Of a stretch of DNA of 64,000 nucleotides, positions 1 to 11,435 are shown piece after piece. The position numbers were made by a program, and so were the translations under genes. The stretch is from Paracoccaceae bacterium. GTDB taxonomy: Bacteria > Pseudomonadota > Alphaproteobacteria > Rhodobacterales > Rhodobacteraceae. How positions within the stretch are numbered: position 1 is the stretch's first letter; each line of letters opens with the position of its first letter. Under the pieces are notes generated by a model. That model was given only the letters and a program-made list of their open reading frames with translations. It made no database searches and was not told where the DNA came from. The DNA lies in assembly GCA_020629115.1 (NCBI GenBank), contig JAHDDY010000008.1, positions 3,916 through 67,915 of the forward strand, written 5' to 3'.

Positions 1-507
1 CGGACGGGCCTGTCGTCGGTCTTCGCCACGCTCGGCGAACCGATCCTCGATGCCGCCTCGCTCGGGGAGGCGGGGCTAAGGGCCGTCATCGTCGATACGG
101 GCGTCCTGTGCCAGTACGCGGCGTTGCGGCGGCTGGTCGATCAGGCCGTCCTCGCCGATCTGTCCGCCCAGCTCGGTCTCGATCTCACGGCTCACGATGC
201 CCGCCGGGCCACGGGTGGCGAGGTCATCGATCTCGCCCGGGCGCTCGCCTGTCCCGAACCGGGACCGTCCGGCGACGTCGAGACGCTCATCCATGCCATC
301 CTGGATGACGGACTGAGATGCTGGACCTGCTGGGTTCACGCGCGACCGCCGGGAAGTACGCGTTTCCTCGAAGCGCTTGTCCCGGCGTTGCCCGGCGCTG
401 GCCCGGTTATTGCATCCGAACCCTGCAAACCCCGCGATTGCGCCCGTCGCGCCGCGCTCTTCCAGGCGCGGTTGACGAAGGCGTCCGAGGAGCGGGGCGG
501 AACCTAG
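1..507 (+). CDS. Partial (5'-truncated) hypothetical protein immediately upstream of sctL; the position fits an SctK-like cytoplasmic T3SS component
   Basis: Frame 1 is open from base 1 to TAG at 505-507. GC3 is very high over 1-300 and lower over 300-507. It ends 12 nt before sctL. No recognisable motif, so the function is positional inference only. Confidence 0.35.
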   Translation, partial: RTGLSSVFATLGEPILDAASLGEAGLRAVIVDTGVLCQYAALRRLVDQAVLADLSAQLGLDLTAHDARRATGGEVIDLARALACPEPGPSGDVETLIHAILDDGLRCWTCWVHARPPGSTRFLEALVPALPGAGPVIASEPCKPRDCARRAALFQARLTKASEERGGT

Positions 508-519
508 CGGGGCGATGCG

Positions 520-1155
520 ATGCAGGACGAACCGAACGACGCGGCCCCTCCGGCTCGGAGCGATGCCGTGTCGAAGATTCTTCGAGCGCAGGATTTCGAG
601 GCCCTCGCCAGCGCGCGGACCGGAATAGACCAGGCGCATTCCGAGGCCGACGCCATCGTCGCCGCCGCCCACGAGCAGGCGCAGGCCATCCGCGACGAGG
701 CGCGTGCCGAGGCCGAGGCCGACCGCGCCGCCCTCGTCGCCGAATACGCCGGGGCGATGCACGCGCAGATCGCGGCGATGCCGGACAGGATGGCGGATCT
801 CGCCATGGCCTGCCTGCGCCGGGTCCTCGACCCCATACCCGATGCGAAGGCCGTGGCCGGTGCCGTCGCGGCGACCCTTCGCGAGACCGATATCGCAGGC
901 GGGGCCGTGCTCGTCGTCGCGCCGCCCCTGATGCATACCCTGCGCGAGCAACTGGAGCGACGGGGCATCCCGGCGACGGTCATCGAGGTGCGCGGCGATC
1001 CGGAATGCCCCCTCGAATCGAGCGTCCTGCGCTCGCCCTTCGGGGATATCGAACTGGGCATCGAGCCGCAGTTGCGCGCCATCGAGCGCGGCCTGCGCGC
1101 CGCCGCGCGGAATGGCGACCCGCAGGGTAGCGACCCGCAGGGAGACACCGCATGA
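520..1155 (+). CDS. sctL: T3SS stator protein SctL (FliH/YscL family)
   Basis: 211 aa. Ala/Glu-rich coiled-coil N-terminal half (AHSEADAIVAAAHEQAQAIRDEARAEAEADRAA) typical of FliH/SctL. The stop overlaps the ATPase start (ATGA at 1152-1155). Confidence 0.7.
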   Translation: MQDEPNDAAPPARSDAVSKILRAQDFEALASARTGIDQAHSEADAIVAAAHEQAQAIRDEARAEAEADRAALVAEYAGAMHAQIAAMPDRMADLAMACLRRVLDPIPDAKAVAGAVAATLRETDIAGGAVLVVAPPLMHTLREQLERRGIPATVIEVRGDPECPLESSVLRSPFGDIELGIEPQLRAIERGLRAAARNGDPQGSDPQGDTA

Positions 1156-8605: not shown

Positions 8606-8983
8606 ATGAGTGACCTGAAGTCCACCATTTCCAGGATGCCCCCGGGCCGCGCCGTGCCGTCGGAGGGCGCGGCCCGCTCCCATGCCGCGCCGCGCCCCGC
8701 GATCGCCCTGCCGCGACGGCCCCCGCAGGGCGTCGAGGCGCGGGGCGACCAGCGCACGGCGACGACCGCGCCCCTGTCCGATTTCATCGCGCCGCCAGCC
8801 GAGACTGCGGAATGGCTCGGCAGCCCCGCCATCGGCTCCGTGCTGGCCGCCGTCTCGCGCGACCTTGCGCCCGACGGGGTCGCGATGTCCAAGCGCAACC
8901 AGTACGCCGCCAGCGTCGTGGAAACCCACATGGTCGCCCGCCGACAGCTGACCCGCCACCTCAACGCCCTGCTGCGCGCATGA
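8606..8983 (+). CDS. Hypothetical 125-aa protein; YscX-like by position and size
   Basis: SD GAAGGA lies 8 nt upstream. Pro/Ala-rich N-terminal half and helical C-terminal end. ATGA overlap with the following TPR gene. No motif recognised. Confidence 0.5.
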   Translation: MSDLKSTISRMPPGRAVPSEGAARSHAAPRPAIALPRRPPQGVEARGDQRTATTAPLSDFIAPPAETAEWLGSPAIGSVLAAVSRDLAPDGVAMSKRNQYAASVVETHMVARRQLTRHLNALLRA

Positions 8984-9348
8984 GGGATACGCTTGCCCTG
9001 ACGGCGGCAACGGGCGGCCGCGCCGTCGAGGCGGAGGCCAAGGCCCGCTCGCTGCACGCCCTCGGCGCCTTCTACCTGCGCCAGGGATTTCCGCGACAGG
9101 GCCTGTCCCTGCTCCTCGCCGCCCGGGACTACGGTATCCGCGACGGCGCGCTCGACCGGGCCGTAGCCCAGGCGTACCTCCTGAGCGGCGCGCCGAAGCA
9201 GGCGCTGGAGGTGCTGGACGCGATCGAGCCGGAGCTGGACACGCCCCGCCTGCGCGACAGCGCCCGCCTCCTGCGCAGTCGCGCCCTTCTGGCGCTGGGC
9301 CGGACCGAGGAGGCGCGGGCCGTCTTCGGGCGGAGGGACGCGGCATGA
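8980..9348 (+). CDS. TPR-repeat protein, T3SS chaperone-like (YscY-like position)
   Basis: 122 aa from ATG 8980, within track ORF 8812..9348. TPR-like helices (ALGAFYLRQGFPRQGLSLLLAA, AVAQAYLLSGAPKQALEVLDAI, RSRALLALGRTEEARAVF). ATGA overlaps at both ends. Confidence 0.6.
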   Translation: MRDTLALTAATGGRAVEAEAKARSLHALGAFYLRQGFPRQGLSLLLAARDYGIRDGALDRAVAQAYLLSGAPKQALEVLDAIEPELDTPRLRDSARLLRSRALLALGRTEEARAVFGRRDAA

Positions 9349-11435
9349 TCGGCTCCCTCCATCGCGGCCTCAGCGCCGCCGGCAAGCGTCAGGACCTCGT
9401 GGTCGTCGTCCTGCTCGTCACCGCCATCCTGATGATGATCCTGCCCCTGCCGACCTGGCTGGTGGACATCCTCATCGCCGTGAACCTCGCGGGGGCCGTG
9501 CTCCTCTTGATGATGGGCCTCTATCTCAAGCGCCCGCTCGAATTCTCGACATTGCCGTCCGTCATCCTGATCGTGACCATCTTCCGGCTCGCGCTCTCGA
9601 TCACCACGACGCGACTCATCCTGCTCAACGCCGATGCCGGGTCGATCATCGAGACGTTCGGCCAGTTCGTCATCGCGGGCGAGATCATCGTCGGCCTCGT
9701 CGTCTTCCTCATCATCACCATCGTGCAGTTCGTGGTCATCACCAAGGGGTCCGAGCGCGTGGCCGAGGTCTCGGCCCGCTTCACGCTCGACGCGCTGCCC
9801 GGCAAGCAGATGTCCATCGACAGCGACCTGCGCAACGGCGACATCGACGCCGCCGAGGCGCGTTCGCGCCGGCGCATGATCGAGCAGGAGAGCCAGTTCT
9901 TCGGCGCGATGGACGGCGCGATGAAATTCGTGAAGGGCGATGCCATCGCCGGCCTGGTCATCGTCGCCGTCAACCTGATCGGCGGCATCGCCATCGGCAT
10001 GGTCAGCCACCAGATGGCCGCCGGCGAGGCGGTCGAGACCTATTCGCTGCTCACCGTGGGCGACGGCCTCGCCGCCCAGCTCCCGGCCCTGTTCGTGTCG
10101 CTGGCGGCGGGGGCGGTCATCACCCGCGTCGCGACCGACGAGAACGAGAACCTCGGCGCGGACATCACCCGCGAGATGATCTCCAGCACCATCGCCCTGC
10201 GCGTGGCCGCCGCCATCCTGTTCGTGATGATGTTCATCCCCGGCTTCCCGTGGCCCGTCTTCCTCGTCCTCGGCGCGGGCCTCCTGGCCATCAGCTTCTC
10301 GGACCGCCTCGGCGTCATGCTGTTCGGAGAGAGCGAGGACGACGGGACGGAGGCCACGGGCAACGACCTGCTCGACGAGGTCGGGCTGGAGAAGAGCCCC
10401 TTCGTCGTGCGCATCAATCCCGAGCTGATCTCCGATGCCGACCGCGCCGTCTTCGCGGACGAATCGGCGGAGGCGACCCTGGGCATCAGCGCCGAGATCG
10501 GCCTGTCCATCCTGCCCCCGCGCCTCGTCGGCGATCCGTCCCTCGCGACGGAGAGCGTGCGGGTCGATCTGGATGACGTGGCCGTCTCGGGCTTTTCCGT
10601 CGATCCGCAGGCCATCGGCGTCGACGCCGATGCGGAGACGCTGATCCTCGCCGACGTGGCCCATCGCGCCGCGACCAGCCCGCCGCCGGGGTTCCGTTCC
10701 CTGCACTGGGTCGAACCCGACGCGGCCCCCGCCCTTGCCGAGCACGGGCTGACGACGCTGACGCCGCTGGAGGTTCTGCTGATCGGCGTGCGGGGCGCGC
10801 AGACGCGCTTCGCCTCGCAGTGCATCGGGGTGCAGGAGGCTCGCGCCGCGCTCGTGGGCATGTCCCAGCACTATCCCGACCTCGCGTCCGAAGTGCGCGA
10901 CCTGCTGCCGCTCAACAAGATCGCGGAGGTCTTCCGTCGTCTCGTCGACGAGAACGTGCCGATCCGCAACCAGCGCCTGCTGCTCGAAGCCATGGCGGAA
11001 TGGGGCGCGAAGGAGCAGGACCCGGTCGTCCTGACCGAATACGTCCGCACCGCGCTCAAGCGCCAGATCTGCAACGCGCTGGCCGGGGAGGACCGGGTGC
11101 TGCCCGTCTACCTGCTCGACGGGGCGGTCGAGGATGCGCTGCGCAATGCGGTCCGCCAGACGACGGTGGGCGAATACCTCGCCCTCGACGACAACGTCTC
11201 CGCCGCCCTGGTCGACAACATCCGCGAGAACCTGCGCGAGCCGACCGACGGCGGCACGCGCCCCAGCGTCCTCGCCTCGCTCGACGTGCGCCGCTTCGTG
11301 CGCAGCCTGATGAGCAACAACGGGATGCGCGAGACGTCGGTGCTGTCGTACCAGGATCTCTCGACCGAGTTCACCATCACCCCGATCACGACGATCATGC
11401 TGCCCGAGATGGACTACGCCGCCGCCGCCGAATGA
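9345..11435 (+). CDS. sctV: T3SS export gate protein SctV (FlhA/YscV/LcrD family)
   Basis: 696 aa. Hallmark FTLDALPGKQMSIDSDL, MDGAMKFVKGDAIAGLVIVAVNLIGGIAIG, and a large C-terminal cytoplasmic domain. Confidence 0.95.
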   Translation: MIGSLHRGLSAAGKRQDLVVVVLLVTAILMMILPLPTWLVDILIAVNLAGAVLLLMMGLYLKRPLEFSTLPSVILIVTIFRLALSITTTRLILLNADAGSIIETFGQFVIAGEIIVGLVVFLIITIVQFVVITKGSERVAEVSARFTLDALPGKQMSIDSDLRNGDIDAAEARSRRRMIEQESQFFGAMDGAMKFVKGDAIAGLVIVAVNLIGGIAIGMVSHQMAAGEAVETYSLLTVGDGLAAQLPALFVSLAAGAVITRVATDENENLGADITREMISSTIALRVAAAILFVMMFIPGFPWPVFLVLGAGLLAISFSDRLGVMLFGESEDDGTEATGNDLLDEVGLEKSPFVVRINPELISDADRAVFADESAEATLGISAEIGLSILPPRLVGDPSLATESVRVDLDDVAVSGFSVDPQAIGVDADAETLILADVAHRAATSPPPGFRSLHWVEPDAAPALAEHGLTTLTPLEVLLIGVRGAQTRFASQCIGVQEARAALVGMSQHYPDLASEVRDLLPLNKIAEVFRRLVDENVPIRNQRLLLEAMAEWGAKEQDPVVLTEYVRTALKRQICNALAGEDRVLPVYLLDGAVEDALRNAVRQTTVGEYLALDDNVSAALVDNIRENLREPTDGGTRPSVLASLDVRRFVRSLMSNNGMRETSVLSYQDLSTEFTITPITTIMLPEMDYAAAAE

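Follow-up and report, generated by a model that had tools for sequence, protein, structure and literature searches.

The first 11,435 bases of the 64,000-nucleotide stretch analyzed here (the window; contig JAHDDY010000008.1 of assembly GCA_020629115.1) carry 15 genes of a non-flagellar type III secretion system (T3SS). We are confident that bases 1-11435 represent the distal two-thirds or so of a chromosomal cluster of the Rhc ("Rhizobiales") T3SS family, and the cluster is an undescribed sub-lineage within that known family and not a new type of system. Judged from protein similarity, the host would be a Neomegalonema-like alphaproteobacterium (Rhodobacterales, Neomegalonemataceae). The window was compared with L002 and L003, which are loci from Neomegalonema metagenome-assembled genomes (MAGs), with L017 (Neomegalonema perideroedes), with L035 (a metagenomic locus and the nearest outgroup), and with further loci numbered in the same series; identities refer to amino acids. 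The features of the cluster are as follows.

1-507, + strand: gene in the sctK/nolU position, 3' part only (168 codons and the stop), frame 1 open to the stop at 505-507 and cut by the window edge.
520-1155, + strand: sctL, stator (NolV/RhcL equivalent); Pfam T3SS_SCTL and NCBIfam SctL TIGR02499 (E = 4.6e-19).
1152-2522, + strand: sctN, ATPase; NCBIfam SctN TIGR02546 (E = 6e-162).
2519-3013, + strand: sctO, stalk (Y4yJ equivalent); Pfam YscO-like (E = 1.9e-4, below the family cutoff), conserved position after sctN.
3014-4084, + strand: sctQ, cytoplasmic ring/sorting platform; NCBIfam SpaO_YscQ (E = 8.9e-38, above cutoff) and Pfam FliMN_C.
4077-4733, + strand: sctR; NCBIfam SctR (E = 9e-78), 94% identity to L002.
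4747-5016, + strand: sctS; Pfam Bac_export_3 and NCBIfam SctS.
5100-5906, + strand: sctT; Pfam Bac_export_1 and NCBIfam SctT (E = 7.5e-47).
5903-6961, + strand: sctU, switch protein; Pfam Bac_export_2 (E = 2.5e-69).
6962-7068, + strand: AT-rich intergenic region (GC content 0.41), putative promoter of a second transcription unit.
7069-7284, + strand: YscE/SctE-like gene of 71 amino acids; conserved in L002, L019, and L017, with a 71-amino-acid gene call at this position in L037.
7291-7485, + strand: gene of 64 amino acids in the nopA position before sctD (y4yQ).
7513-7557, + strand: hairpin and U-tract after the 64-amino-acid gene, putative terminator or attenuator.
7578-8465, + strand: sctD of the short Y4yQ type, 295 amino acids; Pfam Yop-YscD_ppl_3rd (5.7e-10), Y4YQ_C (6.9e-7), and Yop-YscD_cpl (1.8e-6).
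8606-8983, + strand: gene in the SctX position, 125 amino acids; 62% identity to L002, ATGA overlap with the next gene.
8980-9348, + strand: SctY-like TPR chaperone, 122 amino acids; NCBIfam T3SS_chap_SctY (E = 1.3e-12; 48 bits, below the 70-bit cutoff) and TPR Pfam matches.
9345-11435, + strand: sctV, export gate, last gene of the cluster; NCBIfam hrcV TIGR01399 (E = 1.5e-230, above cutoff).

These genes encode the ATPase complex (a partial SctK with SctL, SctN, and SctO), the sorting platform protein SctQ, the export apparatus (SctR, SctS, SctT, SctU, and SctV), and the inner membrane ring protein SctD, together with a YscE-like small protein, the 64-amino-acid protein, and the pair in the X and Y positions ahead of sctV. 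SctN has a Walker A motif (GEPGTGKS) at residue 182 and also a Walker B-like motif. SctD is made up of an FHA-like cytoplasmic domain, one predicted transmembrane segment at approximately residues 123 to 141, and a short periplasmic part, and it matches Bosea y4yQ by tblastn (E = 6e-8); YscD has 419 amino acids. Genes are translationally linked by ATGA overlaps at 1152, 2519, and 5903 and by a ATGGCTGA overlap at 4077, and further ATGA overlaps are present at 8980 and 9345.

An initial annotation, made from the sequence alone, had recognized a non-flagellar T3SS in an alphaproteobacterium, and much of it was borne out: the sct genes that it listed are intact and in place according to both Pfam and NCBIfam, the junction sequences agree with its 4-nt overlaps at 1152, 2519, and 5903 and its 8-nt overlap at 4077 (those at 8980 and 9345 it had not listed), and its FHA-type SctD-like gene has the FHA-like domain, YscD periplasmic domain 3, and Y4YQ_C. 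Three details needed revision. The cluster, described as compact, runs past the left window edge, as bases 1-507 are the 3' end of the sctK-position open reading frame (ORF); the AT-rich spacer after sctU is a spacer at 6962-7068, but 7069-7284 is the conserved 71-amino-acid gene; and the small-protein/TPR pair is real, but gene calls in the relatives give its ORFs as 8606-8983 and 8980-9348 and not the longer 8812-9348.

All 15 genes are intact and under purifying selection. Relative to L002, the ratio of nonsynonymous to synonymous substitution rates (dN/dS) was 0.04 to 0.38 for 14 of the 15 genes (0.20 for sctO and 0.30 for the sctK-position gene), synonymous substitution (dS) being saturated in the X-position gene, and substitutions were concentrated at third codon positions in all 15. 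GC content is 0.70 in the cluster and in the remaining window alike, and GC content at third codon positions (GC3) likewise matches. No tRNA, integrase, or meaningful repeat was found at the cluster junction, where a direct- and inverted-repeat search gave only chance GC-rich matches; the nearest tRNA genes lie 18 to 20 kb away. We regard the cluster as a maintained system, long resident in the chromosome. Recent horizontal acquisition is ruled out by GC and GC3 values equal to the genome background.

The gene order in the window (partial K, L-N-O-Q-R-S-T-U, small genes, D, two small ORFs, V) is the published layout of Rhc clusters. The contiguous L-N-O-Q-R-S-T-U run had been noted at the outset as typical of rhizobial clusters, and the block is indeed collinear with those of NGR234 and Bosea; the same annotation had also seen a mixed order, unlike a standard Rhc locus, with a Ysc arrangement of small protein and TPR gene before sctV, and here it was mistaken. 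Gazi et al. 2012 (PMC3574062) described a pair of small ORFs separating y4yQ from rhcV, of which the second encodes a YscY-like TPR protein, in Bradyrhizobium japonicum USDA110 and in subgroup Rhc-II, and we see the same pair in Bosea, Paracoccus, and L035. The seemingly mixed order is thus ordinary Rhc order.

Subgroup Rhc-I is among the closest known systems. On NGR234 plasmid pNGR234a, the order is nolW (rhcC1), then nolB-rhcJ-nolU-rhcL-rhcN-y4yJ-rhcQ-R-S-T-U, then y4yQ, and then rhcV-y4yS, with NopC- and NopA-like small ORFs ahead of y4yQ. Rhc-I systems (NGR234, Bosea, and Mesorhizobium symbiosis plasmids) share with the window the collinear nolU-to-rhcU block, small secreted-protein genes, a short SctD bearing Y4YQ_C, the absence of sctP and sctW, and a SctU without the NPTH motif, and the Bosea plasmid also has the two small ORFs between y4yQ and sctV. 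With the relatives of the window they share rhcJ ahead of the block, an rhcC1 stub, and a Y4yS-like TPR protein. In contrast, SctV and SctN identities between Rhc-I and the window are only 45 to 47% and 49 to 53%, Rhc-I has nopC where the window has the YscE-like gene, and y4yS follows rhcV in Rhc-I, whereas the Y4yS-like TPR gene follows rhcC1 in the relatives. NGR234 also has tts boxes, which the window lacks, and the window cluster lies in the chromosome of a wastewater bacterium that is not a rhizobium, has a GC content like that of its host, and has no nop effector genes nearby.

Other systems resemble parts of the cluster. A Paracoccus sanguinis plasmid has exactly the order of the window (U, YscE-like gene, small gene, D, two small ORFs, V), and in L035 the second segment likewise consists of small genes, D, two called small ORFs, and V, encoded on the strand opposite to its J-K-L-N block. 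Rhc-II systems (NGR234 pNGR234b and Pseudomonas syringae T3SS-2) and Paracoccus share SctD, two small ORFs (the second with TPR), and sctV but carry rhcC2 directly after sctV, where the window has a convergent housekeeping gene 7 nt on, and their SctV identity is 41 to 43%. The Rhc-III cluster of Rhizobium etli CFN42 (p42d) has rhcV near the main block, as in the window, but lacks y4yJ (SctO), y4yQ (SctD), and the YscY-like gene, all of which the window keeps, and has a truncated rhcU, an HrpW-like pectate lyase, and an rhcV that is inverted. The genes ttsI and nopA/B/C are reported to be missing from Rhc-II and Rhc-III clusters (PMC3973906).

The 71-amino-acid protein (72% identity to L002; dN/dS 0.27) aligned by profile with a Paracoccus protein (hhalign 95.8%, E = 6.8e-9) that itself matches Pfam T3SS_needle_E at 8e-7, suggesting that it is probably a needle or pilus co-chaperone. 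The 64-amino-acid protein (84% identity to L002; dN/dS 0.08) is rich in Gly, Ser, and Thr in its N-terminal region and conserved in its C-terminal half, and it aligned with the NopA family (hhalign 79%, E = 1.5e-5); it is probably an extracellular filament subunit resembling the NopA pilus or needle protein, although it had no Pfam or PDB sequence match. Pfam searches at E <= 5 gave no match for the window's own small proteins, and PDB sequence searches with the 71- and 64-amino-acid family profiles gave nothing useful. The SctX-position protein aligned weakly with the YscX set, over its C-terminal 32 residues only (E = 0.003, probability 11%), and its counterpart in L035 has a weak Pfam YscX match. 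A Bosea ORF just upstream of sctV matches window positions 8953-9327 (tblastn E = 9e-7), and the SctY-like TPR protein is also homologous to a Paracoccus ORF ahead of sctV.

SctU provides a further character. In place of xxNPTHxAxxxxY, the motif alignment shows VCSGGQIAVGLRY at residues ~275 to 290 of the window protein, and the NPTH autocleavage motif is likewise missing from six other Neomegalonema-clade loci (L002, L017, L019, L034, L036, and L037) and from Bosea, NGR234a, Mesorhizobium loti, NGR234b, and Paracoccus (L012, L013, L014, L015, and L021). It is present in YscU, Spa40, and Ralstonia HrcU, and RhcU of R. etli Rhc-III stops short of the region. The absence of NPTH is a shared character that backs the grouping with Rhc. 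In addition, sctQ starts directly after sctO (junction TAGATG), with no sctP between them. Since both SctP and the SctU NPTH site are missing, substrate switching may work differently across the Rhc family; a literature search found no paper naming both "NPTH" and "RhcU".

Phylogenetic placement was based on neighbor-joining (NJ) distance trees of SctV (681 columns), SctN, and a concatenate of SctN, SctR, SctT, SctU, and SctV. In the SctV tree, the window falls within a Neomegalonema clade (100% bootstrap), which lies in an 88 to 91% clade with Rhc-I, Rhc-II, a Geminicoccaceae/Inquilinus group, and Paracoccus, and Ysc, Hrp2, Mxi-Spa, a Pandoraea system, and FlhA all fall outside this Rhc-containing clade. 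The SctN tree, for which clade supports were not printed, gives the same grouping. In the concatenated tree, Rhc, Neomegalonema, and Paracoccus group at 99% and Neomegalonema groups with Rhc-I/II at 90%; these values become 94% and 72% once R. etli Rhc-III is added, which is then a weak sister of the Neomegalonema clade (64%). The trees suggest that the system forms its own clade (Neomegalonema and relatives) among Rhc subgroups I to III, with the branching within the family tentative. The lineage had been proposed to lie outside the standard families, and instead the core proteins nest, with moderate support, in the Rhc family that shares their gene order. A Myxococcales-family origin, hinted at by SctN matches of ~50% identity, is ruled out, as the two Myxococcales MAG proteins branch apart in the SctN tree.

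The closest genomes are two uncultured Neomegalonema MAGs (85% and 83% SctN identity), and a SctV search found ~40 metagenomic relatives at 72 to 88% identity. SctV is 59% identical to that of N. perideroedes and 47 to 52% identical to proteins from a broad alphaproteobacterial set (Geminicoccaceae, Inquilinus, Methylorubrum, Kaustia, and some Bradyrhizobium). Neomegalonema has been placed in Rhodobacterales, and N. perideroedes is a filamentous activated-sludge bacterium whose genome paper is silent on type III secretion and flagella. The lineage was initially called divergent and little studied: it is little studied, in that our literature search found no paper tying Meganema to a T3SS and no rhizobial system exceeds 47% SctV identity, but it is not separate from Rhc.

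As a separate observation, the SctV encoded at 292-2397 of L027, a B. japonicum plasmid (pBjCNPSo29a), falls in the SctV tree with the Ysc-like proteins of Yersinia and Vibrio instead of with Rhc, and its gene is followed by one for an FHA-domain protein. Plasmids of bradyrhizobia would thus carry a second type of T3SS that is not Rhc.

The left window edge cuts into the cluster, because frame 1 is open from base 1 and its product resembles that of the gene between sctJ and sctL in relatives (57% identity in L002 and L003; 100% identity to Logan contig L001); by profile it resembles NolU weakly (hhalign probability 30%, E = 5e-4). In L002, L003, L036, and L037, the order ahead of sctK is an rhcC1-like stub, a gene for a Y4yS-like TPR protein, small ORFs, and sctJ. 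The last lies directly before the K-to-U block in these four loci and in L019, where only the 3' end of sctJ is visible before sctK. By analogy, what is missing upstream would be rhcC1 (an N-terminal secretin stub), the Y4yS-like TPR gene, some small ORFs, one of which is weakly NolB-like, and sctJ, together with the 5' part of sctK. The rhcC1-like products are N0-only proteins of 222 to 269 amino acids in L002, L003, L036, and L037, such stubs at the conserved position in relatives span 206 to 320 amino acids, and all 35 RhcC1 homologues found are 156 to 320 amino acids long; a homology search with L002 RhcC1 returned no match from the window's own contig. Between relatives, dN/dS was 0.09 to 0.14 for rhcC1, the Y4yS-like TPR gene, the NolB-position gene, and sctJ, with dS near saturation.

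Among the relatives, the cluster is conserved on its left flank and variable on its right flank, after sctV. A large collagen-triple-helix repeat protein is encoded divergently beside rhcC1 in L002 (3-680, - strand), L003 (2479-5223, - strand), and L037 (1-1299, - strand), with an additional EF-hand match in L037, and an untyped fragment occupies this place in L036 (3-398, - strand). The MAG contigs L002, L036, and L037 break off no more than ~1.5 kb upstream of rhcC1, in two cases visibly within the collagen-repeat gene. This protein may be a surface or secreted partner of the T3SS or a mere neighbor. The divergent intergenic regions ahead of rhcC1 in the four relatives (L002 680-882, L003 5223-5433, L036 398-826, and L037 1299-1535) share three conserved elements, GGTCGCCGTCCC, TTGCATCAAAA, and CGTCTTGTTTTGG, which may be candidate regulatory sites. 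In L035, a DUF6381/DUF1521 protein is encoded between rhcC1 and sctJ (4187-5677, - strand); a DUF1521 protein also occurs at the edge of the Bosea locus, and no counterpart was seen in the Neomegalonema-clade loci.

Several points weigh against assignment of the cluster to the Rhc family. The half from rhcC1 to sctJ is known from relatives and not from the window's own genome. An RhcC2-type secretin, one half of the split secretin that defines the family, was found neither in the window nor in the ~10 kb around five related clusters, and no effector or translocon gene was identified. Identity to characterized Rhc proteins is low (SctV, 41 to 47%; SctN, 49 to 53%), and the proteins in the sctK, NolB, and SctX positions show weak homology to their namesakes. 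Finally, the branching among Rhc subgroups has only 64 to 76% bootstrap in simple NJ distance trees, which do not include Hrp1, Chlamydiales, Desulfovibrionales, or beta-Rhc and have no confirmed Esc/Ssa representative.

The secretin deserves particular attention because a split secretin is a distinguishing feature of Rhc clusters (PMC3574062). Two purpose-built hidden Markov models (HMMs), one of RhcC2/CpaC proteins and one of YscC/MxiD/HrcC, gave no secretin-domain match for the 64-kb window or for any of the loci L002, L003, L017, L019, L034, L036, and L037 and recovered all positive controls (Bosea, Paracoccus, L035, and NGR234b). The best 120 matches to L035 RhcC2 all belonged to taxa other than Neomegalonema, which makes that homology search uninformative about the clade. 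Likewise, the window contains no sctJ. Both absences had been pointed out initially, and for sctJ, as for rhcC1, the reason would be that the left window edge cuts the cluster. On the other side of the cluster, rhcC2 directly follows sctV in L035, Paracoccus, NGR234 pNGR234b, and Rhizobium johnstonii, and the region after sctV with a Tad-type secretin gene (rhcC2) is at 12196-14291 in L035, 22046-23272 in L015, 16009-17562 in L021, and 2518-2643 in L033. In L035, rhcC2 is followed by a cpaD-like gene of the Pilus_CpaD family, the product of which is probably a pilotin or partner of RhcC2. In all five Neomegalonema-clade loci that are readable there, sctV is the last gene of the cluster and a different gene comes next in each.

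Window: HDAC-like gene and glnE (gap 11436-11442).
L002: Rieske oxygenase (gap 15591-15599).
L017 (N. perideroedes): pirin (gap 12089-12183).
L019: DUF6505 (gap 12092-12202).
L034: alpha/beta hydrolase (gap 8567-8663).

The variable site after sctV is consistent with a hotspot of rearrangement or deletion at the point where rhcC2-cpaD lies in the nearest outgroups. One could read the cluster as an Rhc-type system that truly lost its secretin by deletion of rhcC2-cpaD after sctV and now borrows a Tad secretin in trans, works without an outer membrane channel, or is decaying. The position of rhcC2 in L035, Paracoccus, pNGR234b, and R. johnstonii, the different housekeeping gene after sctV in each of the five loci, the lack of a secretin domain in the window and in the flanks seen, and the report that the Rhc-III system of R. 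etli, the weak sister (64%), has no rhcC2 (PMC3574062) all speak for such a loss. However, rhcC2 is normally unlinked in Rhc-I (PMC3574062; PMC3459982), and its absence near the cluster is therefore uninformative. Moreover, all core genes are under purifying selection, as are rhcC1 and the Y4yS-like TPR gene in the relatives (dN/dS, 0.11 to 0.14), and the only known roles of these two concern RhcC2: RhcC1 was proposed to connect SctD to RhcC2, which derives from Tad (Abby and Rocha 2012; PMC3459982), and Y4yS affects RhcC2 abundance in M. loti membranes (PMC4311626). On balance, we consider true secretin loss unlikely. The rhcC2 gene has presumably either moved elsewhere, as in Rhc-I, or been lost, as reported for Rhc-III, and we favor an unlinked rhcC2 because rhcC1 and the Y4yS-like TPR gene are retained under purifying selection. 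Passage across the outer membrane would then need a Tad-type RhcC2 that is encoded elsewhere and docked via RhcC1.

The resemblance to the Ysc family raises the question of whether the cluster is a separate, unrecognized family of non-flagellar T3SSs or a Ysc/Rhc hybrid, in which an Rhc-like L-to-U block would be joined to a Ysc-like yscX-yscY-yscV module. Like the window, the Ysc system of Yersinia pYV has a coupled yscX-yscY-yscV-like trio, a YscE-like co-chaperone gene before a small filament gene, and the N-O-...-Q-R-S-T-U order, and the window's SctV is barely more similar to Rhc (41 to 47%) than to Ysc (40%). The match of the TPR protein to the NCBIfam SctY model and the YscE-like gene in the place of the Rhc-I nopC point the same way. 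The X/Y-type pair before rhcV, however, is native to Rhc clusters (PMC3574062), and the trees place the window in a clade with Rhc-I/II/III and keep Ysc apart. Ysc clusters also have yscP between O and Q, yopN-tyeA-sycN ahead of yscX, a full-length YscC secretin, and NPTH in YscU, whereas the window has no sctP or other gene between sctO and sctQ and no gatekeeper genes. Given also the Y4YQ_C domain of SctD, the rhcC1 stubs of the relatives, and the Rhc-wide loss of NPTH shared by SctU, a separate family or hybrid is largely refuted and in our view very improbable. We see next to no chance of a flagellar export apparatus or a flagellum-derived remnant, for although the core proteins also match FliI, FliP, FliQ, FliR, FlhB, and FlhA models, they do so at lower scores than the Sct equivalogs, which are the best-scoring models for every protein, the trees split the system from FlhA and FliI with 100% support, SctD, SctL, SctO, SctQ, and the SctY-like gene are of the injectisome type, and no flagellar structural genes occur in the window or among the called genes of L017, L019, L036, and L037; tree topology and gene content thus rule out a flagellar origin.

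The layout suggests two transcription units, the first running from upstream of the window through sctU and the second starting from a promoter that may lie in the AT-rich gap, where a TTGACA sequence at 7015-7020 belongs to a TTGAC(A) element conserved in alignments of five relatives. After the 64-amino-acid gene, direct folding of 78 nt (-35.9 kcal/mol, z = -3.7) gives a strong hairpin at 7513-7550 whose GC-rich stem has 14 bp, and UUUUCGUUU comes next. The terminator proposed for this gene in the initial annotation is therefore plausible; a consensus/simple terminator scan found none there, probably because the loop is long. In the second unit, the co-chaperone and the filament subunit would be expressed first, and the hairpin would attenuate read-through into sctD, the X/Y pair, and sctV. 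The machine would then export the NopA-like filament along with further substrates. A scan for tts boxes with the core pattern GTCAGNTTNTCGAAAGC, which we take to be the consensus and which was validated by the NGR234 control alone (two exact matches at the expected sites), gave no match with up to three mismatches in the window or in L003, and regulation would thus not seem to act via TtsI and tts boxes. The elements GGTCGCCGTCCC, TTGCATCAAAA, and CGTCTTGTTTTGG were not found ahead of the second unit, and a search for a motif common to both promoter regions found none.

Beyond sctV, the window holds genes that lie outside the system, and no effector, translocon, or T3SS regulator gene was recognized among them, in agreement with the initial annotation as to effectors and translocon. 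The first two are as follows.

11443-12351, - strand: HDAC-like housekeeping gene, convergent with sctV; Pfam Hist_deacetyl.
12352-15135, - strand: glnE, housekeeping gene; Pfam GlnE.

The stop-to-stop gap between sctV and the HDAC-like gene is 7 nt, exactly as first described. The start codon of the HDAC-like gene abuts the glnE stop on the minus strand (12349-12354; CAT followed by TCA on the plus strand), and the two genes are probably co-transcribed. The remaining window encodes a molybdopterin oxidoreductase, a polyhydroxybutyrate depolymerase-type esterase, a peptide ABC transporter, trpF, sulfate assimilation functions, a formate-tetrahydrofolate ligase, a Tct transporter, and two tRNAs. 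A match to Rfam Cis8_sRNA, a Ruegeria small RNA family, lies at 52966-53093 (- strand; 79.9 bits, above the gathering score), antisense inside tctA (51922-53448, + strand).

Overall, known family architecture and the window edge explain the mixed order and the missing ring genes of the initial description. The cluster extends the Rhc family, usually discussed as a device of legume symbiosis, to chromosomal and apparently vertically maintained clusters in Neomegalonema-like wastewater bacteria, with related clusters in Geminicoccaceae, Inquilinus, Methylorubrum, Kaustia, and Paracoccus, and is of modest interest for T3SS ecology beyond plant and animal hosts. The cluster also lends itself to comparison on two points of Rhc biology, the cooperation of the RhcC1 stub with a Tad-type secretin and substrate switching without SctP and without the SctU NPTH site. 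A more speculative and rather doubtful possibility is that the Neomegalonema-clade system is a pared-down T3SS of a sludge filament that has lost rhcC2-cpaD, has a SctU predicted not to cleave, and has neither ruler nor gatekeeper. If so, such a machine would need either a Tad secretin borrowed by means of RhcC1, the adaptor it has kept, or a role different from injection into plant cells, for example action on protist grazers or filament-based adhesion.

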